A model generated the notes under the pieces. It saw only the letters and a program-made list of their open reading frames with translations. It made no database searches and was not told where the DNA came from. Below, piece by piece: positions 140 through 44,083 of a stretch of DNA of 44,083 nt (positions within the stretch are counted from its first letter, which is position 1; each line of letters opens with the position of its first letter). The position numbers and the translations under genes were made by a program. This stretch comes from Candidatus Uhrbacteria bacterium. GTDB taxonomy: Bacteria; Patescibacteriota; Patescibacteriia; UBA9934; GWF2-40-263. The stretch covers positions 1-44,083 of the forward strand of contig JAZDHJ010000058.1 of assembly GCA_043805995.1 (NCBI GenBank), written 5' to 3'.

Positions 140-323
140 AAGTTTTTTAACTTATTTTAATACCAGAACGGCCAAAGGCACCACTATTCACACCGCTGAC
201 GTAACTGCCGTTTGTGACGAAGGCGAAATAAATATCTTCCACGTTGCCTCTGGTGAATGGGGTAAAAATAATCAGCTGGTCTGGCAAGAAATGAAAGATT
301 TTATTTCTTCAATAAAATTCTGA
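90..323 (+). CDS. Hypothetical; possibly only the 3' fragment (140-323) of a gene interrupted by the terminal repeat
   Basis: 77-aa ORF whose first 50 nt lie inside the terminal repeat. No recognised domain. AT-rich like native genes. Confidence 0.3.
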   Translation: MSPLVKPVVYRVGWTIKSFLTYFNTRTAKGTTIHTADVTAVCDEGEINIFHVASGEWGKNNQLVWQEMKDFISSIKF

Positions 324-324
324 A

Positions 325-349
325 TAAAAAAACACCCGGGCCTTGGGTG
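325..349 (-). terminator. Hairpin plus T-run after the GC-rich gene 379..912
   Basis: Minus strand reads cacccaaggcccgggtg followed by ttttttt (5-bp stem). Confidence 0.45.
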
Positions 350-378
350 GCGGGGTGCAGGAAGGCGATTGGCTCGGA

Positions 379-912
379 TCAGGATTGGTGCGGGGCCGCT
401 GCTATGGCCGCGACAGCCTGGTGGATCGGATAGTCTTTCCCCAACACGGACGTCTCTTGTTGAAGGCTTGCAGCCAGTTCATGGGCCGCGAGCGATATTC
501 GTCCGGTTGAGAGGAGGCCTTTGGTATGGGTCTCTTGAATCCGCCGCCAGCTTTCTTTCCGCTCTCCTAGGTCGAGGCACGAATAGACCGCCGCGGCGAA
601 GACGAAGATCGTGAAGAATCGGTGATTCTCCGCATCGAAGTGGCTGTATGACCGGGTGGCCGCATCGAGGGCCTCAGGACGAAGAGCAATGGTAACGAGG
701 AAGAAGGTCGAGACCTGTCTGTCGTTGAGAACCAGGTTTTCTGCCCACTTGTCTCCGAGCATCCCACAGGCAGCGAGGAAGGCAGTGGCCTCGAGCCAGG
801 CCAGTAGGTAGTTCTCGTCTACCGGCGTCCCGATTTCGCGGATTTGTGGGACCTGAATGCTTCTGGCCTTGGCCAAAGCTTTTTCTGCCAGTTGTCTAAG
901 CACTGTACTCAC
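379..912 (-). CDS. GC-rich orphan protein (177 aa), helical-looking, no family recognised
   Basis: GTG start at 912 with GGAGGTG 5 nt upstream. Own hairpin/T-run after the stop. Block is visibly far more GC-rich than its flanks. Contains RIQETH (Rx4H spacing, weak HEPN-like hint). Confidence 0.55.
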   Translation of the reverse strand: MSTVLRQLAEKALAKARSIQVPQIREIGTPVDENYLLAWLEATAFLAACGMLGDKWAENLVLNDRQVSTFFLVTIALRPEALDAATRSYSHFDAENHRFFTIFVFAAAVYSCLDLGERKESWRRIQETHTKGLLSTGRISLAAHELAASLQQETSVLGKDYPIHQAVAAIAAAPHQS

Positions 913-1047
913 AGGACACCTCCACTCAGGTTGATCTCATTTGTCTCGGCCAAACAAAATACCATTTTTGGCGAGAAAGTCAATAGGCAAACCTTTGATA
1001 ATGAACCAGATCTTGATTTTTTCCTTTAAAACTGCTAAAAAGCTCTC

Positions 1048-2148
1048 ATGAAAAATAAAAAACTTAAGGTTTTGGTTGGCATGTCTGGCGGCGTTGACTC
1101 TTCGGTCACCGCGGCTTTGCTGTTGGCACAGGGTTACGAGGTTATCGGGGCTTTTATGAAAAATTGGTCCGATGCCGTTGATTGTGATGGTGAAAAAAAA
1201 GAATGCGGCTGGAAGAACGAACGCCGGGATGCCATGCGAGTAGCGGCTAAACTCGGCATTCCGTTCCTGACTTTTGATTTTGAAAAAGAATATCGTCGCG
1301 ACGTTATCGACCACATGTTCCATGAATTCGAGGCTGGTCGAACCCCAAATCCCGATGTCTGGTGTAACAAATATGTAAAGTTCGATTTATTTTTAAAAGA
1401 AGCCGACAAACTTGGTTGTGATTTTATTGCCACCGGACATTATGCGCGGATTGAAAAGGTAGAAGGGGACGAAGGGGCGGAAGGGGTTGCAGGGAGTTAT
1501 AAAATTTTCGCCGGCTCCGATTCCAACAAAGATCAAACTTACTTCCTTTGGGCGATTCCACCCGAGGTTCTGCCGCGAGTTCTTTTTCCGATTGGTGATA
1601 TGTTGAAACCTGATGTCCGAAAAAAGGCACATGAGTTTGATTTGCCGGTGGCGGATAAAAAGGATTCGACGGGGATTTGTTTTGTGGGTGAAGTGAATAT
1701 TCGAGATTTTTTGCAACAAAGGATTCCTAAAAAACCTGGCCAGATTGTTACGACAACCGGAAAAGTTGTCGGCAGCCATGAAGGTTTACCGTTTTATACC
1801 ATTGGTCAACGCGAAGGATTAAATATTGGCGGCGGTACACCTTATTATGTCGTCGCTAAAAAACCAGCAACGAACGAACTCGTGGTTTCCAGTAATTTTG
1901 AACAAGCACTTTTTGCCGATAGTCTCGAAGCGGATTCTTGTAATTGGTTCAATCAACCAAAAACTCTGCCGTTCGAATGTGAATGTCGAATCCGTTATCG
2001 CCAGCCTTTGGTTAAATGTATTATCGAAGAGACAAAAAAAGATACCGTCAAAATATCTTTCAAAGAACCGCAACGTGCTGTGACCTCGGGCCAGTCAGTG
2101 GTTTTTTATGCTGGTGAGGAAATGATTGGCGGGGGAATTATTGTCTGA
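1048..2148 (+). CDS. mnmA: tRNA-specific 2-thiouridylase MnmA
   Basis: 366 aa. PP-loop SGGVDSS, ATGHYAR and KDQTYFL blocks. Carries a Gly/Glu-rich insert encoded by a G-rich repeat word at 1459-1495. Confidence 0.95.
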   Translation: MKNKKLKVLVGMSGGVDSSVTAALLLAQGYEVIGAFMKNWSDAVDCDGEKKECGWKNERRDAMRVAAKLGIPFLTFDFEKEYRRDVIDHMFHEFEAGRTPNPDVWCNKYVKFDLFLKEADKLGCDFIATGHYARIEKVEGDEGAEGVAGSYKIFAGSDSNKDQTYFLWAIPPEVLPRVLFPIGDMLKPDVRKKAHEFDLPVADKKDSTGICFVGEVNIRDFLQQRIPKKPGQIVTTTGKVVGSHEGLPFYTIGQREGLNIGGGTPYYVVAKKPATNELVVSSNFEQALFADSLEADSCNWFNQPKTLPFECECRIRYRQPLVKCIIEETKKDTVKISFKEPQRAVTSGQSVVFYAGEEMIGGGIIV

Positions 2149-2291
2149 ACCACCGTGTCCTTCCGTAGCTCATCGCGAGCGACCTGTCCTTCCGAAGCCC
2201 GAGCGTAGGAGGAAGGAGGATGATTTTTCTGATTTACTTGATTAACCTGATTCCGCACAAAAAAATCAAGACAATCCTTTAATCAAGCGAA

Positions 2292-2942
2292 TCAAGGTTC
2301 AGACAATTTATCTTCCGCCCACTCATAAAACCCAGCCGCCGAGCTGGCTTGCGGATTGAACTCCGATAGAACTGGCTGAGCAGGATTCAGTTCATTGATA
2401 TCCAAGGCCTGTGAGTTGTTAAGTTGAAAAGTTTGCCCTCCAAGAACGTCTATAAAAACCGGACTGCCGATGGTCGCATAAGTTGTCTTGTCCAAAAAAT
2501 CATAACGTACAACCGTCATTGAGCCAGCGGCAATTTCGCCGGTGGCTTTTGGTGAAGTGACAATAAGTTTTTCTGTTTCCATGGAGGTGCTGGCAAGTAA
2601 GCGACCGCGAACAATTTTTATTTCCACCTGAGTGGGGAAGAGCTGTTCGAGAACGATATCTGTTTGTTGATCGAGCGCGACAGTGATATTTTCTCCAATT
2701 CGAATAAAAGCACGAGAATTTTCCCCAACCATTATTTTTTCACCACGAGTTACCGAATCGCTCGTTTCAACTGTCCGGATTTTTCCAGCTCGATCAACTT
2801 GAGTCTTTCCTTCAACAACCTCGATCGTGACCGGCAGAGATTTAATATAACCTTCACCACCGGCAAAAATAAAACCAAATCTAGCCGAAATTAGCAGGCC
2901 TGATAAAACAATAAAGAAAATTAAAGCCCAGAGTTTTTCCAT
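2292..2942 (-). CDS. Membrane-anchored protein, FecR-domain-like (weak)
   Basis: 216 aa. N-terminal TM helix then a beta-rich region resembling FecR-type domains by eye only. Confidence 0.4.
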   Translation of the reverse strand: MEKLWALIFFIVLSGLLISARFGFIFAGGEGYIKSLPVTIEVVEGKTQVDRAGKIRTVETSDSVTRGEKIMVGENSRAFIRIGENITVALDQQTDIVLEQLFPTQVEIKIVRGRLLASTSMETEKLIVTSPKATGEIAAGSMTVVRYDFLDKTTYATIGSPVFIDVLGGQTFQLNNSQALDINELNPAQPVLSEFNPQASSAAGFYEWAEDKLSEP

Positions 2943-3190
2943 ATGTTTTTTGAGGGGTAAAAGGGGTTTAAGGGGTTGCAGGGAGGTTTTTAGGTTGGGT
3001 GGTTGGTGTGGACGAAGGTCCGAAAGGTGTTAAAGGTTTGAAAGGATTGGTTGGATAGGTTTTTTTAATTTCAATTCAAACAACCAAAACCAATACCTTT
3101 AGGACCTCTACAACCCTTCGGACATAAATCCGATCCTATCCACCGTAAAAATCCCCTTCAACCCCTTAAACCCTTTCCGCCCCCTTTCGA
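2943..3190. repeat. Long imperfect palindrome: G/T-rich arm then C/A-rich arm (word-repeat family)
   Basis: Left arm contains GGGGtaaaaGGGGtttaaGGGGttgcaGGG (2954-2983). Right arm contains CCCCttcaaCCCCttaaaCCCtttccgCCCCC. 2961-2980 is identical to 10716-10735. Confidence 0.8.
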
Positions 3191-3227
3191 TAGTCATTCT
3201 ACCAGAAATTCGCTATACTATCCATGT

Positions 3228-4127
3228 ATGAAAAATAAATATTTTTTAGTTCTTTTTACAACTTTGGTGCTGGCAGGTTTCGGTTGTTCTCCAACTATCC
3301 CAGCCTCCGACACTGCTGCCAAAGACACGGCCGAAGCCGTGGATTTTCAGTCGGGTTCTACTGTTACAATTAAACAAACAGTTTTTGGTCTGGGTGGTAT
3401 TTTTGCCGAGACAGTTTCAGGTGATGGCTTGGCTGAATATCAATTAGTTGTTGATTCATTCGTGCCAGAAAATTTCGTGTCTTTTTCTTGGTCGAACAAA
3501 GTTGAAGTAGAGACAGCTGACTCTATTGCTGTTCGAGAAGCTTTTGAGGCAGCCAGTCACCCTATTGGTGATACTACAAAAGCCCCGACGCCGGTTTACG
3601 AAACCGTCACAAAAACCGGAAACTATTCAACTACCGCTTTGGATAATGGTACAAAAATTCTTTTGCCGGCTTATTGGTCGGAAGGTGACCAATCTTTTGA
3701 GGATAATTCAATTATCTGGTTATCTAAAGAACAATACGAAAGTTTGGTGAGTACAAAAACCGCCACTTTGTCCCTTGGTTTGTTCGATGAAAAAATCGCT
3801 TCACTCGTCGGTATGAGTGACTCGGTCCAAAATGCTTTGAATACCTTGCAACAAAAAGCCGCCGACGCCTCCAAGAGTCAGGATATTTATAAACTGACAG
3901 CTGATAACGATTGGCAAACTTATTCTTTGCTCGTTGATGGAACCGAAAAGACTGTACAAACAATCCAAGCCAATAACTGGTTCGGTTCGTATGTCATTCT
4001 GGCCAATGCCGAGAATCCACTGGTTCTCAAAGCTACCTTGAATCCCTTTGCTCTCGGTTCATTCAATATTTCATCACCACTTTCGTCATTCCTTGGCTAC
4101 GAAGTTACGGAAATTAAGATTAAATAA
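3228..4127 (+). CDS. Secreted or lipoprotein-like hypothetical protein
   Basis: 299 aa. N-terminal signal peptide ending AGFGCS. No recognised domain. Confidence 0.65.
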   Translation: MKNKYFLVLFTTLVLAGFGCSPTIPASDTAAKDTAEAVDFQSGSTVTIKQTVFGLGGIFAETVSGDGLAEYQLVVDSFVPENFVSFSWSNKVEVETADSIAVREAFEAASHPIGDTTKAPTPVYETVTKTGNYSTTALDNGTKILLPAYWSEGDQSFEDNSIIWLSKEQYESLVSTKTATLSLGLFDEKIASLVGMSDSVQNALNTLQQKAADASKSQDIYKLTADNDWQTYSLLVDGTEKTVQTIQANNWFGSYVILANAENPLVLKATLNPFALGSFNISSPLSSFLGYEVTEIKIK

Positions 4128-13502: not shown

Positions 13503-15113
13503 GTGAGTCTTAATAAATTAAATAGTGAAGCAAAAACCATCGCCGGGGCGGCTGTCCTCCTCGGCGTTCTTTCGTTTGCCAGTCGAGCTGTTGGTTTTGT
13601 CCGCGATCGTATTCTTTCTGGTGAATTTGGGGCAGGCGATGTGCTTGATGCTTATTACGCCGCTTTTAAAATGCCGGATTTTGTTTTTAATCTTTTAGTG
13701 GTCGGTGCTCTGTCTGCTGGTTTCATTCCACTTTTTGTTAAAGCTCTGCAATCTGATAAAGAAAAAAAAGAGGCTTGGTATTTTACAAACAATGTTTTGA
13801 ATATTCTTGGTTTGGTTTCCTTTGTGGCGGCGATTTTGATGGCCATTTTTGCTCGACCCTTAGCTCACATTATCGCCCCAGGTTTTGAAGGCGTTCGAGA
13901 AGAAATGGTTGTCACCTTTACTCGTGTCATGTTGCTGGCTGAATGTTTTCTGAGTCTTTCGGTGGTTTTCGGCAGCGTTTTGCAGGGTCTAAAAAGATTT
14001 CTTTTTTACGCCTTGGCCCCGATTTTCTACAACTTTGGTATTATCGCCGGCGCTTTGTGGTTGGTACCAATTTTTGGACCAGTTGGTTTGGCTTGGGGTG
14101 TGGTTTTGGGTGCCTTTTTTCATTGCTTAATTCAAGTGATTGGCGTTTTTGGTTTGGGTTATCGCTATCATTGGAGTTTTAATTTTCGTGATCGAGCCCT
14201 AATTGAAATGATCAAACTTACCGGTCCGCGAGTTCTTGGTTTGGCTGTCGCTCAAATTAACGTGGTTGTTACTACCATCCTGGCTTCATTTTTAGTAACT
14301 GGCAGCACGACAATTTTTAATTTTGCTTACAACATTTCTTATTTGCCAATCGGCATCATTGGCGTCTCTTACGCCGTGGCGATTTTTCCGTCGTTGGCCG
14401 AACATATCGAACGAAAAGAAAATGAAAAATTCATTGAAACTATTTCTTCTGGTGTCCGCCAAGTTTTATTTTTAATTATTCCGTGCACCATAGTTTTTCT
14501 GCTTCTGCGAGCTCAAATTGTTCGTGTGGTTGTTGGAGCTGGAAAATTTAGCTGGGCTGATACGATTATTACGGCTGATACCTTGGCTCTTATAACTTTC
14601 AGTTTTTTTGCTCAGTGTTTAAATTATCTTCTGACTCGAGCTTTTTTTGCTTTGAGCGACACCAAGACACCTTTGGTTGTTGGTTTGATAAGTGCGATTG
14701 TCAACATCGTCACGGCCTGGTTTTTAATGCCGCAATTTGGTGTCTTGGCTCTCGGTGCGGCCATGAGTTTATCAACACTCGTCAGTTTTATTTTGCTTTG
14801 GGTGCTTTTGCGGATTCGCCTTGGTACTCTGAAGGAAAAAGAAATCCTTCGTTCGCTCTGGCTTTTAACTCTGGCTGGCCTGGCTTCGGCTCTGGCTACC
14901 CAAGCCATGAAACCATTGGTGGTAAAATATATTTCCCTCGAAACTTTTTTTGGCGTTTTATCGCAAGGCTTAATTGCTGGTGGCCTCGGAATTGCTGTTT
15001 ATCTCGCCGTGGCCTTAATGCTAAAATCCCAAGAAGCCCAAACCTTTGTCTCGGCCCTGCGCAGAAAATTATTTAAAGCCTATCAACCGAAGGAAATTGT
15101 GCCGACATCTTAA
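13503..15113 (+). CDS. murJ: Lipid II flippase MurJ
   Basis: 536 aa, GTG start. Multi-TM. N-terminal SRAVGFVRD...FGAG..LDAYYAAF.MPDF pattern. Confidence 0.9.
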   Translation: MSLNKLNSEAKTIAGAAVLLGVLSFASRAVGFVRDRILSGEFGAGDVLDAYYAAFKMPDFVFNLLVVGALSAGFIPLFVKALQSDKEKKEAWYFTNNVLNILGLVSFVAAILMAIFARPLAHIIAPGFEGVREEMVVTFTRVMLLAECFLSLSVVFGSVLQGLKRFLFYALAPIFYNFGIIAGALWLVPIFGPVGLAWGVVLGAFFHCLIQVIGVFGLGYRYHWSFNFRDRALIEMIKLTGPRVLGLAVAQINVVVTTILASFLVTGSTTIFNFAYNISYLPIGIIGVSYAVAIFPSLAEHIERKENEKFIETISSGVRQVLFLIIPCTIVFLLLRAQIVRVVVGAGKFSWADTIITADTLALITFSFFAQCLNYLLTRAFFALSDTKTPLVVGLISAIVNIVTAWFLMPQFGVLALGAAMSLSTLVSFILLWVLLRIRLGTLKEKEILRSLWLLTLAGLASALATQAMKPLVVKYISLETFFGVLSQGLIAGGLGIAVYLAVALMLKSQEAQTFVSALRRKLFKAYQPKEIVPTS

Positions 15114-29771: not shown

Positions 29772-30855
29772 TTTTCCACCACGAACTGGTGGGGTAGCTC
29801 GCTATCTTGAAGCGCTGGCAGTTTTTTTTGGTGAAGAAATTCGGGTCATCGCCAATCCGGAAAAGGGCAGTGAGGTTTTTGACAAGATCGCGCCGTTTCA
29901 GCTCGAGAGACAAGAACTTCTTTTCAAAAAAATCTGGCCACATTGGCTTAGGTCAGTTTTATTTTTGGTAAAAGAACAATTGAATTATCAGACGGTAATC
30001 ATCAGTCACCTTTTACCGCTCGGAGCCGCGGCTTGGCTGGCAAAATTTGTAACTAGACGGCCTTATGTGGTTATTGTTCATGGCATGGATGTTTCGTTGG
30101 CCAAGAATTCAGTTCAAAAAAAATGGCTAGCCGGGTTGGTTTTGCGTGGAGCGAAGGCGGTTGTAGCCAACTCTTCGGCCTTGGCTGAAGAGGTTCGAAG
30201 GGATTTTGGAGTGAAAGAGACACTTGTGGTGTATCCGGGAGTAGAAAACCAGTTGCGGTGGTTAGCGGCCGATCGGCCGTTAACCACCGCAACTGAAGGT
30301 TTTGATAATTTCGTCCTTCTGACCGTTTCTCGCCTAGTGGCTCGAAAAGGTCATCTTCGGGTTCTTCAAGCTTTGTCTAAAATTAAGTCTCAAGTCCCAA
30401 ATCTCCAATATCGAATCGTCGGTGAGGGACCAATGAAAGAAGAGTTGCAGAAAACTACCACCGATCTCGGCCTCGATTCAATAGTAAAATTCGAAGGCTT
30501 TCTAAGTGACGAGAAACTTGCTGAAGCTTACGAACAAGCCAATCTTTTTGTCGAGCCAACTGTCGTCGACTCAATCGACCGTGAAGGCTTCGGTATGGTT
30601 TATCTCGAGGCCGCGGCTCATGGCGTTCCATCAATAGCCACCGATCAACCTGGCGTCGACGAGGCAGTTCTAGACGGTCAAACCGGCCTTCTGATACCAG
30701 ATGGTGACATCGAAGCGCTGGCAGCGGCAATTTTGGCCTTATCGCGCGATCCGGAGGAGAGGAAAAGACTGGGTGAGAACGCCAGGCGACGAGTTTTGGA
30801 GGAATTTGTTTTTGAGAAGCAGTTTGAGAAATTGAGAGAATTTTTGAAAATATGA
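29740..30855 (+). CDS. Glycosyltransferase family 4 (GT-B)
   Basis: 371 aa. EGFGMVYLEAAAHGVPSIATD..G..E.V.DG.TGLL. Confidence 0.9.
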   Translation: MSKRLLLLTLDFPPRTGGVARYLEALAVFFGEEIRVIANPEKGSEVFDKIAPFQLERQELLFKKIWPHWLRSVLFLVKEQLNYQTVIISHLLPLGAAAWLAKFVTRRPYVVIVHGMDVSLAKNSVQKKWLAGLVLRGAKAVVANSSALAEEVRRDFGVKETLVVYPGVENQLRWLAADRPLTTATEGFDNFVLLTVSRLVARKGHLRVLQALSKIKSQVPNLQYRIVGEGPMKEELQKTTTDLGLDSIVKFEGFLSDEKLAEAYEQANLFVEPTVVDSIDREGFGMVYLEAAAHGVPSIATDQPGVDEAVLDGQTGLLIPDGDIEALAAAILALSRDPEERKRLGENARRRVLEEFVFEKQFEKLREFLKI

Positions 30856-38441: not shown

Positions 38442-39254
38442 TTACAACGGGCTCTTAATGTTTTTTAAAGCCGGATTGGTTAAGTGGGTGTAAATTTGCG
38501 TAGTGCGAATATTTTGGTGGCCGAGCAATTCTTGGACATATCTTACATCAACGCCGTTTTCTAATAAATGGGTAGCAAAACTGTGACGTAGAGAATGAAA
38601 GGTTGCGTCTTTTTTTATACCAGTGATTTTTAGAGCTCGTTCAAAAATAATTTGTGCCGTTCTTTCGGTCAATCGACCGCCTCGTTCACTGGCAAACAGG
38701 AAATCATTTGCCTCCTTACCGGCCATAAATTGAAGAATTTTATTTTTCAATTTTTCCGGCATAACAGTAATTCGGTCTTTGGCACCTTTTGATTGTCGAA
38801 TATTGAGTTGGAGATTCGGTAAATCAAGGTCTTTAATCCGGAGTTTTACGGTCTCGGAAACTCTTAAACCGGCACCATAAGACAAAGAAATCATCAGTTG
38901 GTGTTTTTCATTACCAATCGAATTGATTATTTGCTCAATTTCCTCACGCGACAAAACCACCGGCAGACGGTTAGGTTTTTTGGAGAACTTCAGGTTTAGT
39001 TTGAAAGGCACTCTGACAATATTTTCGTAAAAAAATTTGATAGCGTTCAGGTGAACATTCATAGTTTGTCCGGATAAACCGCGATCTTTTAGACCAATCA
39101 AGTATTCCTTAACCTTAAATTCATCGAATTTATCAAAATTAGTCTTGAGAAAACCAAAAAAATCTTTTAGACAACCCAAATAACTATCCAAAGTATTCGA
39201 ACTGTAGTTTCGATACCGCAATTCGGTCTTAACTTTATCTAAAAAATCTTGCAT
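38442..39254 (-). CDS. Tyrosine site-specific recombinase (Xer-sized, IntI-like blocks)
   Basis: 270 aa from ATG 39254. LSYGAGLRVSE (Arg), KGAKDR, HSLRHSFATHLL, LLGHQNIRTTQIYTH (catalytic Tyr), C-terminal KSPL. No IntI-specific insertion. Confidence 0.9.
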   Translation of the reverse strand: MQDFLDKVKTELRYRNYSSNTLDSYLGCLKDFFGFLKTNFDKFDEFKVKEYLIGLKDRGLSGQTMNVHLNAIKFFYENIVRVPFKLNLKFSKKPNRLPVVLSREEIEQIINSIGNEKHQLMISLSYGAGLRVSETVKLRIKDLDLPNLQLNIRQSKGAKDRITVMPEKLKNKILQFMAGKEANDFLFASERGGRLTERTAQIIFERALKITGIKKDATFHSLRHSFATHLLENGVDVRYVQELLGHQNIRTTQIYTHLTNPALKNIKSPL

Positions 39255-39315
39255 AAGGAGCAAAAAGTGATACAATTATTCTTAGTTAGAAGTATAACAC
39301 ACTTCGCATTTCATT

Positions 39316-39365
39316 CCCAAACTCGTTTCTATTAAGAAATTAATTCGGATAGAAACGAGTTAGGC
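39316..39365 (+). repeat. attI/attC-like perfect palindrome ending in GTTAGGC
   Basis: AACTCGTTTCTAT (39320-32), 16-nt loop, ATAGAAACGAGTT (39349-61). GTTAGGC at 39359-65. Confidence 0.6.
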
Positions 39366-39403
39366 GAAATTTTGTCCAATAATTATTTTTTGATTTTTTA
39401 GAT

Positions 39404-40084
39404 ATGACCAAATTTGAAAAATATATTGAAGTTCTAGCTTCCCACGAGGATACAAAAAGTGAATCTTTCCTTGATTCAAGAGGAAGAATTTTGGTTAATG
39501 CTGGGATACGACTAAATTGGATTGGTGATTTTATTTCTAATCCTCAAATTAAATACAAATTAAAAAGTGTTCCAATAAATAAAGTTTTGTTTACTGGCAC
39601 CAATCCAAGCTGGAATAAAATTCTTATCGATCAGTGCGAAAAAAGCGTAGAAAAATTTCAGGCATTAACCAAAAATAATTTGGAAATCAAGAAAAGATTT
39701 TTAAAAGAGGCCTCGTTCGGGGATGAGCCTATTTTAATGCGCGGTCCGGACGAAAATGGTCTTTATCGAGTCTTTGATGGTATGCACAGATTTGTTGGTG
39801 CGGTTTTAAAAAATAAAAAAACCATTTCAGCGTATGTGCCTATAAACGAAGATAGCCATCTGCCAATTTGCGAAGCCCATGTTATCTATGACCTCATTCG
39901 TGGTTTTCAGCGACACGCTAAAGACCAACAAGGAAAACGTGAGTTATATTACGCATTAAAATTGTTAGCTAGAACATATGAAAACGTTGTTGACTTGCTA
40001 AATATTCGTTTCAGTTTTAAATACGTTCCTGACAAAGATGTACAAAAAATAATAGAAAAAGTAATCAAAAAAATCAAAAAATAA
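39404..40084 (+). CDS. Cassette ORF 1: ParB/Srx-fold nuclease-like protein (weak)
   Basis: 226 aa. YRVFDGMHRFVGAVL resembles the ParB-like DGxHR motif. Confidence 0.45.
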   Translation: MTKFEKYIEVLASHEDTKSESFLDSRGRILVNAGIRLNWIGDFISNPQIKYKLKSVPINKVLFTGTNPSWNKILIDQCEKSVEKFQALTKNNLEIKKRFLKEASFGDEPILMRGPDENGLYRVFDGMHRFVGAVLKNKKTISAYVPINEDSHLPICEAHVIYDLIRGFQRHAKDQQGKRELYYALKLLARTYENVVDLLNIRFSFKYVPDKDVQKIIEKVIKKIKK

Positions 40085-40115
40085 TTATTGGGCAAAACTC
40101 AGGGGCTAAAGCCTC

Positions 40116-40187
40116 GCCTAACACGCGATATCCGTAAAGGCTAAAGCCACATTTCTACGAAACGTCAGATATCGCGATACGTTGTAC
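40116..40187 (+). repeat. attC-like site 1 (72 bp)
   Basis: GCCTAAC-acgcgatatc-loop-gatatcgcg(a)t(ac)-GTTGTAC, with bulged bases in the 3' arm. Confidence 0.6.
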
Positions 40188-40257
40188 GAAATAATGAAAA
40201 GTTTTTAAATTTCTTTCAGAAATTTATATTCGCAATTTTATTTTTTTAATTCTATCT

Positions 40258-41076
40258 ATGAACAAAAGATCTGAAACACAAAATTTTCAACCAGAAACCC
40301 CAGAGAATAAACCACTATCCCATATTAGTGAATTTCTGGAAGCGACTAATCAAGGTTTTGAAAGTAAGCCAACCGGACATGTTCATAAAAACGATGAAGG
40401 GTATGGTAATATTCTTCGAAAAATTAGTGATGGTGATGTTGAGAGCGAAAAAACAAGGGTAGGAATTGTTGTGGGAAATGGCGCAATTCTTTCTTCGCTT
40501 CCAGAAATTCCAGCCGATGTAATTATAATGAGCGACTATAATCCATTTATTCACCAATGGACTCAGTTTACGCAAAGGGCACTAGCTGAATCTGGCTCAA
40601 TTGATGAATATAAGAAAAAAGTATACGATCAGCAAAATCCACTTTATTCAGAAAGCTATAGAGAAGGATTAGAAAGAGAAATGGCAGATTTGGGAGAAAG
40701 ACATTTTCTAAGTAGCGAGGATAGATTTCAAAAATGCAAAGAAACTCTCGCACGAAAGAAATTAATAATGGGCGCTCTTGATTTAAGAAATGCTGATGTT
40801 TTAAGAAGTCTCACAGAAGCATTAACTAAAGATAACTCAGAAATCACTTTTGCAAACTTAACAAATGTTTGGGAACATGCTGGCGATTCAATGGAACAAG
40901 CAATCCCAAATCTGCCATTTCATCCAGAAGCTCGTATACTTTTTTCTTCTCGCGCATACACAGAGCGATTTTTCCCTAAAATGATGGGGGTATGTAGAGG
41001 ATTAGCTAAGTATATTGAGAATGCTAAGTCGGCATACTCTTTCTGGATCTATAAAAACAAAAGTGGTTATAGATAA
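40258..41076 (+). CDS. Cassette ORF 2: hypothetical protein
   Basis: 272 aa. VGIVVGNGAILSSL..ADVIIMSDYN segment. No family assigned. Confidence 0.55.
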   Translation: MNKRSETQNFQPETPENKPLSHISEFLEATNQGFESKPTGHVHKNDEGYGNILRKISDGDVESEKTRVGIVVGNGAILSSLPEIPADVIIMSDYNPFIHQWTQFTQRALAESGSIDEYKKKVYDQQNPLYSESYREGLEREMADLGERHFLSSEDRFQKCKETLARKKLIMGALDLRNADVLRSLTEALTKDNSEITFANLTNVWEHAGDSMEQAIPNLPFHPEARILFSSRAYTERFFPKMMGVCRGLAKYIENAKSAYSFWIYKNKSGYR

Positions 41077-41133
41077 AAAAATAAAATTGCGAATATATTT
41101 TGCTATCGCAAAATTAAAACTTTTCATTACATC

Positions 41134-41207
41134 GTACAACACGGCATATCTGGTTCCGCTTCGCTACACCCAAATGCTTCGCGCTTCAGATATCCGGAAA
41201 CGTAGGC
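41134..41207 (+). repeat. attC-like site 2
   Basis: GTACAAC-acggcatatctgg-loop-cagatatccggaaac-GTAGGC. The 3' core lacks one T relative to GTTAGGC. Confidence 0.5.
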
Positions 41208-41281
41208 AAAAGACGTGGCGCTTTTGCCTAATCGCCGCGTCTATCGTCGCTGTTCTACTCAGGCCGCGCACCACGTCCTTC

Positions 41282-41356
41282 GCATAACAGATGTGAGGCT
41301 CCACTTCGTTCTATCCATGTTGTTATCGCAACATCTCATATCTGGATACGATTAAG
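41282..41356 (+). repeat. attC-like site 2b (degenerate)
   Basis: GCATAAC-agatgtgag-loop-ctcatatctggatac-GATTAAG. Confidence 0.4.
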
Positions 41357-41394
41357 TGAAAATAATTTTTGGCCCCTTGAGACGTTTTACCCAT

Positions 41395-42021
41395 ATGAAT
41401 AAAAAGAACGCAATTATAATTCTTGCCGGGGGAATAACCAAAGAAGGTTCATTGCCAGATATTCCAAAATTTCGAGCAGACAAAGGATTTGAATTATTTA
41501 AGGCTGGTGTAGCAGACAAAATTATTATTTCTGGTCGTTATAGTTTTTTATTGGATTACACACCACCTACTACCGAAGCTCAAATAATGAAAGATTATCT
41601 TGTTGCCCTTGGAATCGACAAAGAAAAAATCTTTCTTGAAGAAAAATCTACTGATACAATTGGCAACGCTTATTACACAAAACAAATACTTTTAGATAAA
41701 AATTGGAAAAATATTGTTGTGGTAACTTCCGATTTTCATATTGAACGAACAAAATACATTTTTTCTAAAATACTCGGAAAAGATATTTTTTCCGTCTCAT
41801 ACGAGGAAGCACCGAGCGAATTGACTACCGAACAATATGAGGAGAAGGTGATCTTAGAACAGAAAATTTTGGGATTTACAATGAAATGGTTAGATAAAAT
41901 TGAAAATGGAAACGATGACCAAATTAGAACTTTCTTAATGACAGATCACCCCGGTTATGCAAAAGATCCAAATATTTCAAAACAAGATTTATTAGGTATG
42001 ATGGAAAAGGCTAAAATTTAA
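41395..42021 (+). CDS. Cassette ORF 3: DUF218/YdcF-family protein
   Basis: 208 aa from ATG 41395 (the ORF is open from GTG 41356). IIILAGG...DKIIISG...STDTIGNAYY..VVVTSDFH. Confidence 0.7.
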   Translation: MNKKNAIIILAGGITKEGSLPDIPKFRADKGFELFKAGVADKIIISGRYSFLLDYTPPTTEAQIMKDYLVALGIDKEKIFLEEKSTDTIGNAYYTKQILLDKNWKNIVVVTSDFHIERTKYIFSKILGKDIFSVSYEEAPSELTTEQYEEKVILEQKILGFTMKWLDKIENGNDDQIRTFLMTDHPGYAKDPNISKQDLLGMMEKAKI

Positions 42022-42026
42022 CTGTC

Positions 42027-42126
42027 GTTTAACACGATATATCTGGTTACAAATCTTCCAAGAGTATTCGTTCATATCTTGTTTTGCTAGGCTCTGTAAA
42101 ATATCAAATATGTCGATACGTTATAT
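42027..42126 (+). repeat. attC-like site 3 (100 bp)
   Basis: GTTTAAC-acgatatatctgg-loop-atatgtcgatac-GTTATAT. Confidence 0.55.
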
Positions 42127-42237
42127 ACATTTAAAAACTAAGCCCCTCAAAATTTTGCGATCCCCGAGAGCTTAATAGAAAATACTAAAAATATTAATAA
42201 GGAATTCGATTTTAAATTTATTTAACAGATTTGCACT

Positions 42238-43566
42238 ATGAAAAAAACAATAAAAAACTCAATTAGAATTCTAAGTACGATAGTCATGGTTATCGCGGTG
42301 TTTTTTATTGCTTTTGTTGCGTACAATAAATTTAAGCCAACTAGCCCCTTCACAAATGGCGGAAACGAACGGAACATGATTGTCGTTCTGAGTGACCTTC
42401 ATCTTGGTGCCGACATCGCCTATGCCGAGTGCAACAAAAATCGTTCTTCTCTCCAAAAGCTACTCGAACAAATAAGTGTGTCGCCAAACATTAAAGAACT
42501 GGTGATCGCTGGAGATTTGCTTGACGAGTGGTATGTGCCAGCAACAGTAGATACTTATGCCGGAAAAGATCAACGCGATTTTGTCCAGCGGATTGCGACA
42601 ACCAACAAAGATGTAATTGAGACTTTTAATAATATAATTCAAGCCGGAGAAATTTTAGTCACCTATGTTCCCGGAAATCACGATCTGACAATAACTGCGG
42701 AAAATATTGATCTTATTCTGCCGGGAATAAATCAGGCCCGCGATGAGGAACAAGGATTAGGCACCTACTCGCCAGCCGATTATCCTGAAATAGCCATTGA
42801 GCACGGTCATCGTTATAATTTTTTCTGTGCGCCAGATCCGATTTCCAACCAAGCTGTTGCGCCAGGGACTATCATGCCTCCAGGATACTTTTTTACAAGA
42901 ATTGCCGCCCTCCATCTGCTACAAAAAACTCAAACACCAGGCGATACTATGCCGATTGTTACTCCTAACAATTCTGACGATGTTAGTCAAAGTTCGTTAT
43001 TCTCCTATTGGAAACTTTGGGCCTGGGCGATCAATTATCTGCCAATAAAGGAAAAGTTTGATGAAGAAATTATTGTAACAAACGTTGATGGCTTCACCGA
43101 GACGTATTCAGTTAATGATTTGCTACCTTATCAAAAAATAGCTGGTGGAAAAATAGACGTGAATCTCTATAAGGGAATTCAAGATACTTGGGACCAAAGA
43201 CAAATTCTTAATCATGTACCTGTTAATATTCCTGTAGTTCAAGCGATCGCCAAGGCCTCTTCGGCCGAGGAGACTGATAATCAGGCCGCGGTACAGTATT
43301 TTCTGAACCCTGATTCTGATAAAAGAATCGTCGTTTTTGGCCATAGCCATGTGGCAAAAATTAGTTCGTCTAATAATTATAACGGGCAAAAATCAATCTA
43401 TGCTAACTCGGGAACCTGGATTGATCACAATCCAAATCTGACAACCATGAATTTCATCGTCATAACCCCACAAAATACTAATCCGTCTTCGCAAACCTAT
43501 GTTAAGCTTTATAATTTCGAGGGTGAAGTTGCCACAAAAATGGCTGAAGACGCCTTACGTTACTAA
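42238..43566 (+). CDS. Cassette ORF 4: membrane-anchored metallophosphoesterase
   Basis: 442 aa. DLHLG, GDLLDEW, GNHD, GHRY, GHSH motifs. N-terminal TM helix. Confidence 0.8.
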   Translation: MKKTIKNSIRILSTIVMVIAVFFIAFVAYNKFKPTSPFTNGGNERNMIVVLSDLHLGADIAYAECNKNRSSLQKLLEQISVSPNIKELVIAGDLLDEWYVPATVDTYAGKDQRDFVQRIATTNKDVIETFNNIIQAGEILVTYVPGNHDLTITAENIDLILPGINQARDEEQGLGTYSPADYPEIAIEHGHRYNFFCAPDPISNQAVAPGTIMPPGYFFTRIAALHLLQKTQTPGDTMPIVTPNNSDDVSQSSLFSYWKLWAWAINYLPIKEKFDEEIIVTNVDGFTETYSVNDLLPYQKIAGGKIDVNLYKGIQDTWDQRQILNHVPVNIPVVQAIAKASSAEETDNQAAVQYFLNPDSDKRIVVFGHSHVAKISSSNNYNGQKSIYANSGTWIDHNPNLTTMNFIVITPQNTNPSSQTYVKLYNFEGEVATKMAEDALRY

Positions 43567-43645
43567 AAAGTTTTTGACGAAGCGACGACTGTATATGGTT
43601 AAAATTGTAAAATTTCTTTAAAAAATAATCTAGATCTCCTTTGTT

Positions 43646-43947
43646 ATGGCGTTTACAAAAGAACAAAAAACTCTTGTATTAAGACAGTTGCAAGCTTTTA
43701 AAAGAAATTCTGACATAAAAAAAATAATTTTAAGCGAAGATTCGTACAGCTTTCTTGAATTATTGATTGAACGAGGTGTTTTTGGCTCAGATATTATTAC
43801 CACCGCCATGCATCTTGCAAAATTTTTATATAAACACCAAGAATTGTATTTTCAAAAAGACGTGGTCGATGTTGGCTGTGGTCCAGGAACGCAAGGAATT
43901 ATAATGGCAAAATATGGCGCAAAATCTGTCTTTTTTTCCGACATTAA
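43646..43947 (+). pseudogene. Class I SAM-dependent methyltransferase, interrupted after about 100 codons by the terminal repeat
   Basis: Motif I VVDVGCGPGTQG, post-I SVFFSDI. From 43944 the frame runs through repeat sequence to a stop at 44002. Confidence 0.7.
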
Positions 43948-44082
43948 TTGTCCACCCCACCCGGTAAACCACTGGTTTGACCAGTGGACTCAAAAGGTTT
44001 GACCTTAACGCAGAAAAACAAAAAACATAGTAAAATTCTGACCGGTGGCTTATGAGATACGCTCTGGTAAGATTTCACTATG
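43944..44082. repeat. Terminal inverted repeat, right copy
   Basis: Exact reverse complement of 1-139. Confidence 0.95.
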
Positions 44083-44083
44083 T

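Follow-up and report, generated by a model that had tools for sequence, protein, structure and literature searches.

The window, by which we mean the whole 44,083-nt stretch of DNA analysed, comes from an ultra-small CPR/Patescibacteria bacterium and contains a row of gene cassettes adjoining a conserved Xer-type recombinase gene, an integron-like arrangement that we found to recur over CPR lineages. The recombinase gene (38442..39254, minus strand) encodes an Xer-related ('Cand'/XerA-like) tyrosine recombinase of 270 aa, with a Phage_integrase domain (Pfam, 5.8e-43) and a SAM-like N-terminal domain. The motifs usually carrying the catalytic R, K, H-x-x-R, H and Y are present on a by-eye reading, no residues having been assigned by a tool. 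The protein scores 228.6 bits against the NCBIfam model XerA_Arch (NF040815; cutoff 220) and 233 bits against the integron integrase model TIGR02249, where the match falls below the cutoff of 265 and is split in two stretches. By E-value the integron integrase model nevertheless ranks first in NCBIfam, and among solved structures the top match is VchIntIA (2A3V, 152 bits). In the latter alignment residues 171-194 lie opposite 2A3V chain residues 175-241, so that the recombinase is ~43 aa shorter there; the missing residues fall exactly at the IntI-specific domain, which bears out the first-pass annotation of an enzyme lacking the IntI-specific (I2) insertion. The protein has over 7770 homologues, and its best relatives among genomes (55-90% identity) are spread over CPR lineages, in several of which fmt is linked to the gene. 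The recombinase is Xer-related and belongs to the core genes of CPR bacteria.

A gap of 150 nt separates the recombinase gene from the array, which lies on the plus strand. Cassette 1 (39360..40181) consists of a 226-aa ORF (39404-40084) and site 1, and cassette 2 (40182..41202) of a 272-aa ORF of unknown function (40258-41076) and site 2, both being delimited by an R'/R'' pair and the covariance model described below. Cassette 3 (41203..41350) is GC-rich, has no ORF and ends in site 3; it is supported by the covariance model and by homology to a related locus, L007. Cassette 4 (41351..42120) carries a DUF218/YdcF ORF (ATG 41395 to 42021; Pfam DUF218 1.3e-26) and site 4, while cassette 5 (42121..43600) begins at R' GTTATATAC (42120) and carries a metallophosphoesterase ORF (42238-43566; Pfam Metallophos 2e-11). 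The distal end of cassette 5 is undefined, as no covariance-model site was found 3' of its ORF, and a 'half-site' once suggested near 43590 has no match to the model. Beyond it lies a truncated methyltransferase-like ORF (43646..44002, plus strand) with a weak Pfam MTS match (2e-4); the model detects no site flanking it, and the window stops at 44083, which leaves its place in the array unresolved. The array had been read as five single-ORF units: the cassette units stand, and the ORF-less stretch between sites 2 and 3 brings them to six. Likewise, the predicted DUF218 and metallophosphoesterase functions hold, whereas the ParB-like fold of the cassette 1 product is faint (phrog_33277, E = 3e-3) and the methyltransferase rests on a weak match in a truncated ORF.

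The dif-like core upstream of the recombinase gene

An alignment of 71 non-redundant CPR loci identifies in this gap a dif-like core, the attI equivalent, which in the window reads AATTCGGATAG-AAACGAG-TTAGGCGAAAT (39342..39370, plus strand). The consensus, TTCG[TC]ATA[AG]AAACGA|GTTA[TG]nnGAAAT, has TTCGYATAR as its left arm, AAACGAG as its centre of 7 nt and TTAnnnGAAAT as its right arm, and lies 67-173 nt, mostly 95-115, upstream of the recombinase start codon across the 71 loci. E. coli dif is GGTGCGCATAA-TGTATA-TTATGTTAAAT, and a common core variant, ATTCGCATAA...TTATGTGAAAT, is identical to its arms at 18/22 positions. Past the core GTTA the sequences of the loci diverge, and homology between shared cassettes begins at GTT. 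The crossover in the window core is inferred to lie between G39359 and T39360.

The same alignment of upstream regions reveals a distal conserved element (39296..39316, plus strand) with a left-arm-like direct repeat ACTTCGCAT at 39301-39309, the counterpart of the TTCGYATAATATACAA element in other lineages. An inverted copy of the core centre, AACTCGTTTCTAT (39320..39332, plus strand), forms a perfect hairpin with the core. The palindrome previously noticed beside the recombinase, AACTCGTTTCTAT/ATAGAAACGAGTT at 39320-39361 followed by GTTAGGC, is thus present as described (fold z = -5.9). However, the inverted copy stands directly 5' of the core in 9 loci only (the window, L005-L008, L012, L048, L059 and L086), and the conserved 'attI' is the dif-like core, only its right half corresponding to the palindrome's right arm.

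Structured sites at cassette ends

A covariance model trained on 31 sites from other genomes, with the window left out, gave exactly four matches in the 44-kb window, all on the plus strand (E 2e-9 to 4e-5), and no further site, the next best match having E = 0.3. These are site 1 (40110-40192; 45.9 bits, E 5.6e-8), the slightly decayed site 2 (41128-41212; 45.3 bits, E 7.5e-8), the decayed site 3 (41276-41362; 33.1 bits, E 4.1e-5) and site 4 (42021-42131; 52.6 bits, E 1.8e-9), the same four palindromes that the first-pass annotation had picked out as separating the units. The exact motif AACACGNNATATC occurs in the 44 kb only at 40120, 41138 and 42031, and ATATNNCGATACGTT only at 40169 and 42108. 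Sites 2-4 have decayed, and the degeneracy of the later sites already remarked on is confirmed by the loss of a T in GTAGGC at 41202 and the gain of an A in GATTAAG at 41350. Site 2 resembles sites of L006, L031, L035 and L062.

Across loci, a site of 64-181 nt at the cassette end is built of an R box, a bulge, a covarying 12-bp L stem, two inner hairpins and a CCCAAAT linker. Next to the R box the bulge is asymmetric, with 1 unpaired nt in the 5' arm against 4 nt in the 3' arm, in agreement with the unpaired bases reported for the latter. Both sides have changed in 17/25 pairs, and none of 500 shuffles attains the observed covariation score; RNAalifold, as an independent method, also yields the L stem and the inner stems, with compensatory changes in them. 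When R'' positions are defined by R-box complementarity only, a hairpin with at least 10/11 pairs is found at 19/29 of them, compared with only 2/1581 other TAAC positions.

The sites are confined to one side of the recombinase gene. In 83 related loci (1.04 Mb), all 111 model matches with E <= 1e-3 have a single orientation and are found on the array side, upstream of the recombinase and on the strand opposite to its gene. Neither the recombinase side of these loci nor the rest of the window, 39 kb, gave a match. A match is present in 44 of the 50 loci that have at least 1 kb of array-side DNA. In a reciprocal test, 120 metagenome loci were pulled out by a site-internal DNA pattern alone; a recombinase homologue is present in 17; it lies on the 5' side in every case and is divergently oriented in 15/17. 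The central claims of the first-pass annotation, namely G|TT-bounded cassettes, attC-like folded sites and a short Xer/IntI-like recombinase without the IntI insertion, survive these tests on 83 related and 120 metagenome loci.

Furthermore, the ends of a cassette are complementary to each other. In the window, R'' TCGCCTAAC (40114) reads as the exact reverse complement of R' GTTAGGCGA (39359), and R'' TCGTACAAC (41132) as that of R' GTTGTACGA (40181), so that the 9-mer opening each of these units does match the palindrome closing it. The first R' 9-mer has an exact reverse complement downstream in 31/53 loci, against 1/53 and 2/53 in controls. Using sites found by L-stem geometry alone, a test of the circle footprint free of circularity, we found R''(n) and R'(n-1) to be reverse complements over 6/6 positions in 28/65 cases, compared with 1 for the site's own R' and 3 for a random R'. 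Folding both strands of the circularised site, we found the bottom strand to be the more stable in 39/40 (mean -25.5 versus -21.4 kcal/mol, p = 4e-8).

Cassette content and cassettes shared between hosts

The cassettes are co-oriented past the core GTT, have a size of ~0.4-3.8 kb (median 933 nt, 40 cassettes) and usually contain one ORF; the longest ORF covers ~80% of the cassette. Some 'cassettes' are multigene, reaching 3.8 kb, and the core of L001 is followed by a ~9-kb type I R-M system that resembles an island rather than a cassette; both tell against the capture platform proposed below.

Between close relatives with a syntenic other flank the set of cassettes varies: L007 shares synteny with the window on the recombinase side and has different cassettes. 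A stretch of L007 is nevertheless 91% identical to window positions 41184-41290, with differing cassettes adjoining it, and a DUF218 homologue (39% identity to the cassette 4 ORF) lies within the array of L042. Distant hosts have cassettes in common, at different places in the array and at 76-91% nucleotide identity, and the recombinases of these hosts are each only ~56-74% identical to the window enzyme. For example, the cassette that stands first in L073 comes second in L061, with homology beginning at GTT. Among the ends of long homology blocks, 9/76 fall near a mapped site, and all nine are at GTT with none at R'', indicating that there the site travels with the upstream ORF.

A probable integron-like platform and its rivals

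We consider the locus to be probably a chromosomal integron-like gene-capture platform built on an Xer-type system and not an integron sensu stricto. In its mode of working it would resemble CTX-type IMEX as well as integrons, and we found no description of such a system in the literature searched. In the mechanism that we propose, the 270-aa recombinase would act on the dif-like duplex core ~100 bp upstream of its own gene, its partner being a circular single-stranded cassette whose ends pair, R'' (...nnnTAAC) with R' (GTTAnnn...), to restore a right-arm-like duplex, the R box. With the 12-bp L stem bearing a left-arm-like TCRSATA motif, and a small asymmetric bulge between R box and L stem, the hairpin would mimic a dif site with a distorted centre. 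One strand exchange, at AA|C of the bottom strand and thus facing G|TT, would join the folded site to the core, and replication would resolve the junction. The incoming cassette would be placed next to the core, which would keep its left arm and centre and have its right arm replaced, and repeated capture would yield a co-oriented array. The sequence comparisons show the anatomy of the system, its conservation over CPR lineages, the confinement of the sites to one side and orientation, the covarying stems, the circle footprint, the GTT boundaries, the cassettes common to distant hosts and the folding bias towards the bottom strand; catalysis by this recombinase, the single-stranded intermediate, and the single-strand exchange with replicative resolution are inferred. 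There is no direct evidence of activity. Circular junctions, empty sites and within-population variants were not seen, and assembled contigs cannot reveal them; the decay of sites 2-4 suggests that the array of the window may be largely frozen.

An explanation to which we give even chances is that the recombinase is the sole CPR chromosome-dimer resolvase and the core its dif, the cassettes being parasitic miniature integrative elements with no dedicated capture. It overlaps mechanistically with the capture platform and differs on the purpose of the enzyme and on the beneficiary. The dif site is placed beside the recombinase gene in XerS/difSL, and CTX-phi hijacks XerCD. The match of the core arms to E. 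coli dif, the score above the XerA equivalog cutoff, the spread of the 55-90% identical relatives over many named CPR lineages, and the linkage to fmt, which would provide a chromosomal anchor, all favour a housekeeping role, as does the cumulative GC skew of the window, which peaks near 40-41 kb. 'Cand' recombinases have moreover been placed among Xer-related enzymes and may substitute for Xer in taxa without it (Smyshlyaev et al., PMC8138268). The conservation of the recombinase is about that of a housekeeping gene, so that capture of cassettes may be a by-product of dimer resolution, and as an Xer-related core CPR gene the recombinase makes the system also an IMEX-at-dif arrangement. However, 22 loci with long flanks show no consistent GC skew switch at the core, a comparison confounded by the co-oriented cassettes, and the core centre measures 7 nt instead of 6. 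The known IMEXs are phages or islands several kb in size, unlike the present arrays, whose single-ORF units of ~1 kb share one elaborate and conserved site. Finally, the longest cassette ORF is on the plus strand, directed away from the core, in 37/39, which suggests selection for expression, as in integrons.

It is unlikely that the cassettes are double-stranded Xer modules, recombining as duplexes at dif-like sites, with palindromes that are incidental or serve as terminators or in mRNA stability. For Acinetobacter pdif modules, duplex recombination has been proposed; their sites alternate in orientation, in contrast to the CPR sites, which are all direct. The 3' half of a site does read as a core-like duplex, with a left-arm-like ACWTCnnATA, a longer centre of 8-10 nt and a right arm TTAnnnGAAAT, so that a double-stranded pathway cannot be excluded for some events. 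Duplex recombination nevertheless gives no reason for covariation between R''(n) and R'(n-1) ~1 kb apart, for that of the L stem, or for the better folding of one strand in 39/40 sites. As for a terminator role, a scan found no terminator-like site on the plus strand of the array, its single match being on the minus strand inside the DUF218 ORF.

A canonical integron with IntI, attI and attC, missed only through its short integrase, is very improbable. The top NCBIfam E-value and top solved structure would agree with it, as would the AAC/GTT core triplets, the G|TT crossover, the divergent layout, the single-ORF cassettes and the 64-181-nt sites, but it is contradicted by the IntI-specific domain test (233 < 265 bits in two stretches, ~43 residues absent) and by an attI equivalent that is a dif-like palindromic core. 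The sites also differ from integron attC sites in bulge geometry and in their conserved three-way-junction interior (CCCAAAT), which attC sites lack. Lacking the defining domain, the system is integron-like in working and not a member of the integron family. In current integron work the I2 helix is regarded as the innovation permitting attC recombination and blocking a lethal second strand exchange (PMC7790495). Its absence counts against integron-like capture as well; if the capture platform is real, its enzyme works without the domain thought to make integrons possible. Finally, a family of repeats with no part in recombination (REP/BIME-like elements or structural RNA elements, clustered in one region) is poorly supported and hardly credible, for although the sites are structured intergenic repeats among co-oriented genes, they give no model match on the recombinase side of the 83 loci and none in the remaining 39 kb of the window, are strictly linked to one recombinase gene, share the GTT junction with its core, and fold worse on the sense (plus) strand than on the antisense.

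Folded sites in the window and in related loci

The recombinase ORF of the window (38442-39254, minus strand, 270 aa) is adjoined by a 150-nt gap that holds a palindrome with 13-bp arms (AACTCGTTTCTAT...ATAGAAACGAGTT, 39320-39361) with GTTAGGC after it, and then by a series of plus-strand ORFs, all as described in the first-pass annotation, which had proposed an integron-like cassette array at 38442-43645. The motifs that it saw shared by the ends of the palindromes between the ORFs proved specific to the region, exact AACACGNNATATC being found in the window only at 40120, 41138 and 42031, and exact ATATNNCGATACGTT only at 40169 and 42108. The two pairs of 9-mers that it matched between the opening of a unit and the palindrome closing the same unit are indeed exact reverse complements.

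We then scanned the whole window, with filters off, using a covariance model trained on 31 sites from elsewhere, the window itself being excluded and only other genomes contributing. Four matches were returned, all on the plus strand and all at sites already picked out by eye: site 1 at 40110-40192 (45.9 bits), site 2 at 41128-41212 (45.3 bits), site 3 at 41276-41362 (33.1 bits) and site 4 at 42021-42131 (52.6 bits); the fifth-best match had E = 0.3. The suspicion that the later sites are degenerate holds for sites 2 to 4, which are decayed, while a half-site suggested near 43590 has no match to the model. The count of five single-ORF units has to be amended, as the stretch between sites 2 and 3 is also a cassette, without an ORF. 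At the far end (43646-44083) a methyltransferase-like ORF looks cut off and the window ends 80 nt later, and the array may continue past the contig end.

Related loci were walked from the dif-like core site upstream of each recombinase gene, by taking the reverse complement of the 9-mer of the outer box R', finding the closing hairpin and repeating, which yielded 51 sites in 37 loci. They follow one plan: (T)ACATC-nnn-TAAC, then A, a 12-nt L'' arm, the interior, the L' arm, RAAC and GTTA-nnn-GAAAT, where L'' consists of 4-5 variable positions followed by ATAT-S-Y-GG. To avoid circularity, we also scanned by geometry alone (AAC, 1 nt, 11-bp stem, 3-5 nt, GTT), and found 68 sites on the array side in the plus orientation; the other strand there gave 2, and the two strands of the recombinase side gave 7 and 4, but the family consensus is absent from all of those outside the 68. 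One of those caught on the recombinase side of the window is an unrelated near-perfect GC-rich palindrome (CAGTTGCGGTGGTTA...TAACCACCGCAACTG, 30246-30298), also without the consensus. When the position of the other outer box, R'', was set by R-box complementarity alone, 19 of 29 positions had a stem of at least 10 of 11 pairs, compared with 2 of 1581 other TAAC positions.

The sites are tightly linked to the recombinase. Across 83 loci the covariance model gave 111 matches, every one of them (111/111) located upstream of the recombinase gene on the other strand; of the 50 loci whose array side extends to at least 1 kb, 44 contain a match. In the reverse direction, a site-internal pattern led to at least 120 metagenome contigs; among the matches listed, 17 contigs carry a recombinase homologue (37-63% identical), which is always 5' of the site and divergent from it in 15 of the 17.

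Next we examined the structure of the sites. Both sides change in 17 of 25 pairs, and none of 500 shuffles reached the observed covariation score. RNAalifold independently recovered the 12-bp L stem and two inner stem-loops with compensatory changes, between which a conserved unpaired CCCA(A/T)AT forms a three-way junction (in the window, CACCCAAAT at 41173-41181). As the interiors of integron attC sites are variable, this conservation suggests an extra function, for which a host-factor site or a single-strand origin would be no more than guesses. The AAC and GTT triplets are invariant, and the RYYYAAC/GTTRRRY flanks fit only some sites, for example GCCTAAC/GTTAGGC. Unlike the classical attC pattern, there is a bulge by the R box of 1 versus 4 nt, together with two conserved R-box mismatches. 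When both strands are folded, the bottom strand is the more stable in 39 of 40 circularised sites (mean -25.5 versus -21.4 kcal/mol, p = 4e-8), in part because a conserved C/A mismatch in the top-strand R box becomes a G-T pair on the bottom strand.

A second class of units, very short and ORF-less, lies just past the core in twelve related loci (L010, L011, L017, L018, L036, L039, L041, L050, L064, L069, L080 and L082). In these, the right arm and its reverse complement enclose a GC-rich stretch of 15-25 nt that resembles CGCTCGCTTCGCTCGC, and a perfect, GC-rich hairpin comes next, its geometry being symmetric (1/1 nt); the array of L082 has five occurrences of one such hairpin of 75 nt.

Cassettes, their circle signature and their exchange

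The units behave as cassettes in that an ORF is followed by a 3' site, the crossover falls at G|TT and R'' is complementary to the preceding R'. That they are promoterless has not been established, and promoter and terminator scans of the array gave the same counts as shuffled sequence and were uninformative on a Pc-like promoter.

For sites defined by geometry only, R'' of a site is the reverse complement of R' of the preceding site at all six variable bases in 28 of 65 cases, and five or more positions agree in 40 of 65, against one perfect match to the site's own R' and three to a random R' in the controls. The exact reverse complement of the first R' was likewise found downstream in 31 of 53 loci (controls, 1/53 and 2/53). 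Judged from sequence alone, this complementarity is the footprint of a circle with its two ends paired.

Among 40 cassettes the median length is 933 nt (range 147-3778) and the sites measure 64-181 nt. None of the cassettes encodes a recombinase; the longest ORF is on the plus strand in 37 of 39, covers ~80% of the unit and typically starts ~40-80 nt past the GTT. Some units are multigene islands. In L001 (duplicates L002-L004), a close relative of the window with an 87% identical recombinase, the core is followed by a full type I restriction-modification system of ~9 kb (HsdM, HsdS, HsdR and a YgjP-like gene).

Cassette content differs among relatives, as the first-pass reading implied. The recombinase of L007 is 88% identical to that of the window and the two loci are syntenic on the recombinase side, but their arrays are unlike each other except for an ORF-less cassette of ~85 nt, GC-rich in an otherwise AT-rich array (window 41203-41290; 91% identical to the L007 unit), which has other neighbours in L007. 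This unit of unknown function might be a small RNA, a promoter or a relic, and an exact search of the metagenome collection with a 26-mer taken from it gave no match. Cassettes with 76-91% nucleotide identity are also shared by different hosts, each having a recombinase only ~56-74% identical to that of the window. The second cassette of one related locus (L061) is the first cassette of another (L073), the homology starting at GTT in both, and a further pair (L021 and L035) shows the same pattern, again with homology from GTT.

Most ends of long homology blocks are remote from the mapped sites. Of the 76 ends, nine are close to a site, and these are at GTT (left ends) or just past GTT (right ends), none being at R''. 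In these nine placed cases the site moves together with its upstream ORF, as it does in integrons. A TIR-flanked element with the hairpins as mere spacers can be dismissed, as the hairpin goes with the upstream ORF wherever a block end can be placed.

Of 80 genome loci, 28 break off within 700 nt on the upstream side of the recombinase start, against 8 within 700 nt past its stop. This excess of contig ends fits assembly breaks in a variable array, and hints at heterogeneity within populations.

Other searches returned little. PADLOC found essentially no defence systems in the window cassettes, and an Rfam scan of the window found no family at gathering score. No tRNA or tmRNA gene was found, and hence the window holds no integration site of the tRNA type. 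A 3'-half pattern searched in viral contigs gave 26 matches, about the estimated chance number and none of them a hairpin site, so that these contigs show no sign of a phage vehicle for the cassettes.

The recombinase, its dif-like core and a proposed mechanism

The closest relatives of the window recombinase are in genomes of Candidatus Uhrbacteria and other Patescibacteria (CPR). At a threshold of 1e-20 there are more than 7770 homologues, and in a species-representative genome collection relatives that are 55-78% identical, nearly all of ~270 aa, were found in Falkowbacteria, Buchananbacteria, Moranbacteria, Saccharibacteria, Shapirobacteria, Roizmanbacteria, WWE3 and Peregrinibacteria. The exact sequence has no entry in the assembly index. 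Conservation at this level is what one would expect of a core gene.

We placed the enzyme by HMM and PDB bit scores as a proxy, and not by a tree against IntI and XerC/D/A/H/S. It belongs to a curated Xer family, passing NF040815 (recomb_XerA_Arch) with 228.6 bits against a cutoff of 220; models of the XerC, XerD, XerS and XerH type gave scores below their cutoffs or far lower (XerS, 73 bits). The integron-integrase model TIGR02249 has the best E-value among the models despite matching in two stretches, and its 233.3 bits fall under the cutoff of 265, as do the 143 bits of PRK15417 under 435. The solved structure that matches best in sequence is that of the Vibrio integron integrase VchIntIA (2A3V, 152 bits), followed by archaeal XerA structures (142 and 138 bits) and E. 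coli XerD (84 bits). In the alignment to 2A3V, query residues 171-194 stand opposite chain residues 175-241, so 23 residues face 66 of IntI and ~43 are missing. The IntI-specific insertion is therefore absent, as had been judged by eye, and the recombinase does not have the additional domain of integron integrases (the I2 helix around patch III). Proteins of this kind have been named 'Cand', Xer-related recombinases of candidate phyla, by Smyshlyaev et al. (PMC8138268).

An alignment of the recombinase upstream regions from 71 non-redundant loci revealed a core 67-173 nt from the start codon, mostly at 95-115 nt, with the consensus TTCG[TC]ATA[AG]AAACGA|GTTA[TG]nnGAAAT; to the right of GTTA the genomes diverge in sequence. 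The arms are mutually inverted (ATTYCRCATAA) around a 7-nt centre, giving an 11-7-11 site which fits the dif consensus of two inverted arms of ~11 bp and a short centre, except that the centre is 7 nt and not 6. The common core variant equals E. coli dif at 18 of 22 arm positions. The arrangement of attI beside a divergent intI is also met, with the core by the gene and the array on the opposite strand, the site itself being dif-like and unlike known attI. The recombinase may also be the chromosome dimer resolvase, a role favoured by its conservation and by the dif-like core.

The 13-bp palindrome of the window is a minority variant of this arrangement: its right arm is the core, and its left arm is an inverted copy present in only nine loci. 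As single-stranded DNA it folds far better than shuffled sequence (z = -5.9). Also conserved is an element that lies ~45 nt further upstream of the core, TTCGYATAATATACAA and a partial inverted copy (39296-39316, about -60 to -40 from GTT), with equivalents in other loci. It contains TATAAT and a direct repeat of the core left arm, and could be an accessory binding site or hold divergent promoters, its role being unknown.

The core keeps AAACGA before GTT and the sites have RAAC there, and consequently the crossover must fall within GTTA. A crossover on the R'' side (TAA|C) is ruled out, as AAACGA is kept before GTT in all loci and the homology-block ends that can be placed (9/76) are all at GTT, none at R''. 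With the crossover within GTTA, the general chemistry of tyrosine recombinases would have the monomer bound to the right arm cut the bottom strand at 5'-...TAA|C, opposite G|TT, the same position as in integrons. By sequence, the folded site presents an R-box duplex of the same kind as the core right arm and an L-stem duplex with a left-arm-like TCRSATA, its centre having a 3-nt excess on one strand. We infer that two monomers would sit on this pseudo-dif hairpin and two on the core, and that a single strand exchange would be followed by resolution of the junction through replication, a route known from two reactions, attC x attI in integrons and attP(+) x dif in CTX-phi. At each insertion the left arm and centre of the core would stay in place and a new right arm would come in, hence the variable triplet at +4 to +6, with older cassettes lying further out. 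Replication, cruciform extrusion or DNA uptake might supply the single-stranded DNA. Integration itself is inferred from junctions in sequence, and neither activity nor a circular intermediate has been observed.

The cumulative GC skew of the window peaks at ~41 kb. From the positive skew of the plus strand we infer, for this single locus, that the bottom strands lie on the leading-strand template, as reported for most sedentary integrons (PMC5371416). Over 22 loci the skew has no consistent sign change at the core, a test that the co-oriented cassettes confound. An internal site of one related locus (L042, ~14658-14767 in reverse-complement coordinates) has the core-type AAACGA before GTTA in place of RAAC, and may be a hybrid from core x site recombination.

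Relation to integrons and to other Xer systems

By analogy, the CPR system appears to work like an integron in its layout, cassette anatomy, circle signature, crossover and bias to the bottom strand. A co-oriented array points away from a divergent recombinase gene, the cassettes are mostly one ORF with one imperfect-palindrome site, the AAC...GTT triplets, the G|TT crossover and the complementarity of R'' to the preceding R' are shared, ORF-less cassettes occur, distant hosts exchange cassettes, and the bottom strand is the better folder. However, the CPR recombinase lacks I2, falls below the integron-integrase cutoff and has, across CPR lineages, the conservation of a core gene; in place of attI stands a dif-like 11-7-11 site; the sites have a 3-nt excess by the R box and two R-box mismatches in place of the classical extrahelical bases; and the site interior, variable in integrons, is conserved (two stem-loops and CCCAAAT). 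As the IntI domain is absent and the curated cutoff is not reached, we do not count the system as a member of the integron family.

IMEXs of the CTX type, which integrate via the host Xer at dif, are alike in using a Xer-type enzyme without I2, in elements lacking their own recombinase and, as inferred from sequence, in a folded hairpin that mimics dif with a distorted centre and in a dif-like target whose regeneration would allow tandem arrays. In contrast to these, the CPR units are single-ORF cassettes of ~1 kb without replication or phage functions, one site architecture is common to the sampled CPR lineages, ORF orientation is uniform as in expression platforms, and there is a single recombinase with the site by its gene.

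For the archaeal XerA/dif system, the likeness lies in NF040815 being the closest curated family that the CPR recombinase passes. Archaeal dif is found at the terminus, not beside xerA, and unlike in the CPR system no cassettes have been described there. The centre of difSL, the XerS target of streptococci and lactococci, is 11 bp. Archaeal XerA is a single recombinase reported to act without partners (PMC2958812), and XerS/difSL likewise has a single Xer with the site immediately by the gene (PMC1914069, PMC2958812), but no cassette array or hairpin sites are described for XerS/difSL, and the proteins are only distantly related to the CPR enzyme. Acinetobacter pdif modules, genes between Xer-type sites that are thought to move by Xer recombination, lack a hairpin, a circle signature and a fixed platform by a recombinase gene. 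Sites of the pdif type are 28-bp duplexes in alternating orientation, mostly on plasmids and served by XerC plus XerD, whereas all 111 CPR sites are in direct orientation and are structured elements of 64-181 nt, which excludes the CPR arrays from this class.

We found no description of such arrays in the literature on integrons, Xer/dif and IMEXs in CPR, although unindexed papers cannot be excluded; the IntegronFinder 2.0 survey does not mention CPR, and a study of archaeal integrons required the IntI-specific domain (PMC9668308).

The current view is that the acquisition of I2 moved IntI from double- to single-stranded substrates, and integrons have been proposed to originate from a Xer-like ancestor hijacked by single-stranded IMEXs (PMC7790495). 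By analogy, the CPR system looks like this proposed starting state, alive and widespread. A possible reading, which we offer tentatively and to which we give real but not prevailing weight, is that of an I2-less 'proto-integron', in which a single housekeeping Xer doubles as cassette integrase and recombines folded bottom-strand hairpins with its own dif. If true, the capture of hairpin cassettes needs no I2 domain, and the CPR enzymes would be the nearest living relatives of the IntI ancestor, or parallel to it. With attC-like folded sites beside an enzyme without I2, the origin of integrons from Xer-like systems becomes testable.

CPR represent a large share of bacterial diversity with tiny genomes, and a conserved cassette-capture locus beside a core gene recurs across the sampled lineages. 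Cassette sharing across diverged hosts would make the locus a major channel for gene flow and adaptation in these bacteria, unrecognised until now, and cassette capture would also explain the frequent assembly breaks at the locus. Integron detection rests on the profile of the IntI-specific domain (PMC9668308), and would therefore miss or relabel these platforms, further examples of which can be sought with the covariance model and the core consensus. Eight metagenome loci (L118, L128, L169, L172, L189, L194, L201 and L202) have family sites by recombinases that are only 37-45% identical to the window enzyme, and the system may thus reach lineages beyond the sampled genome collection.
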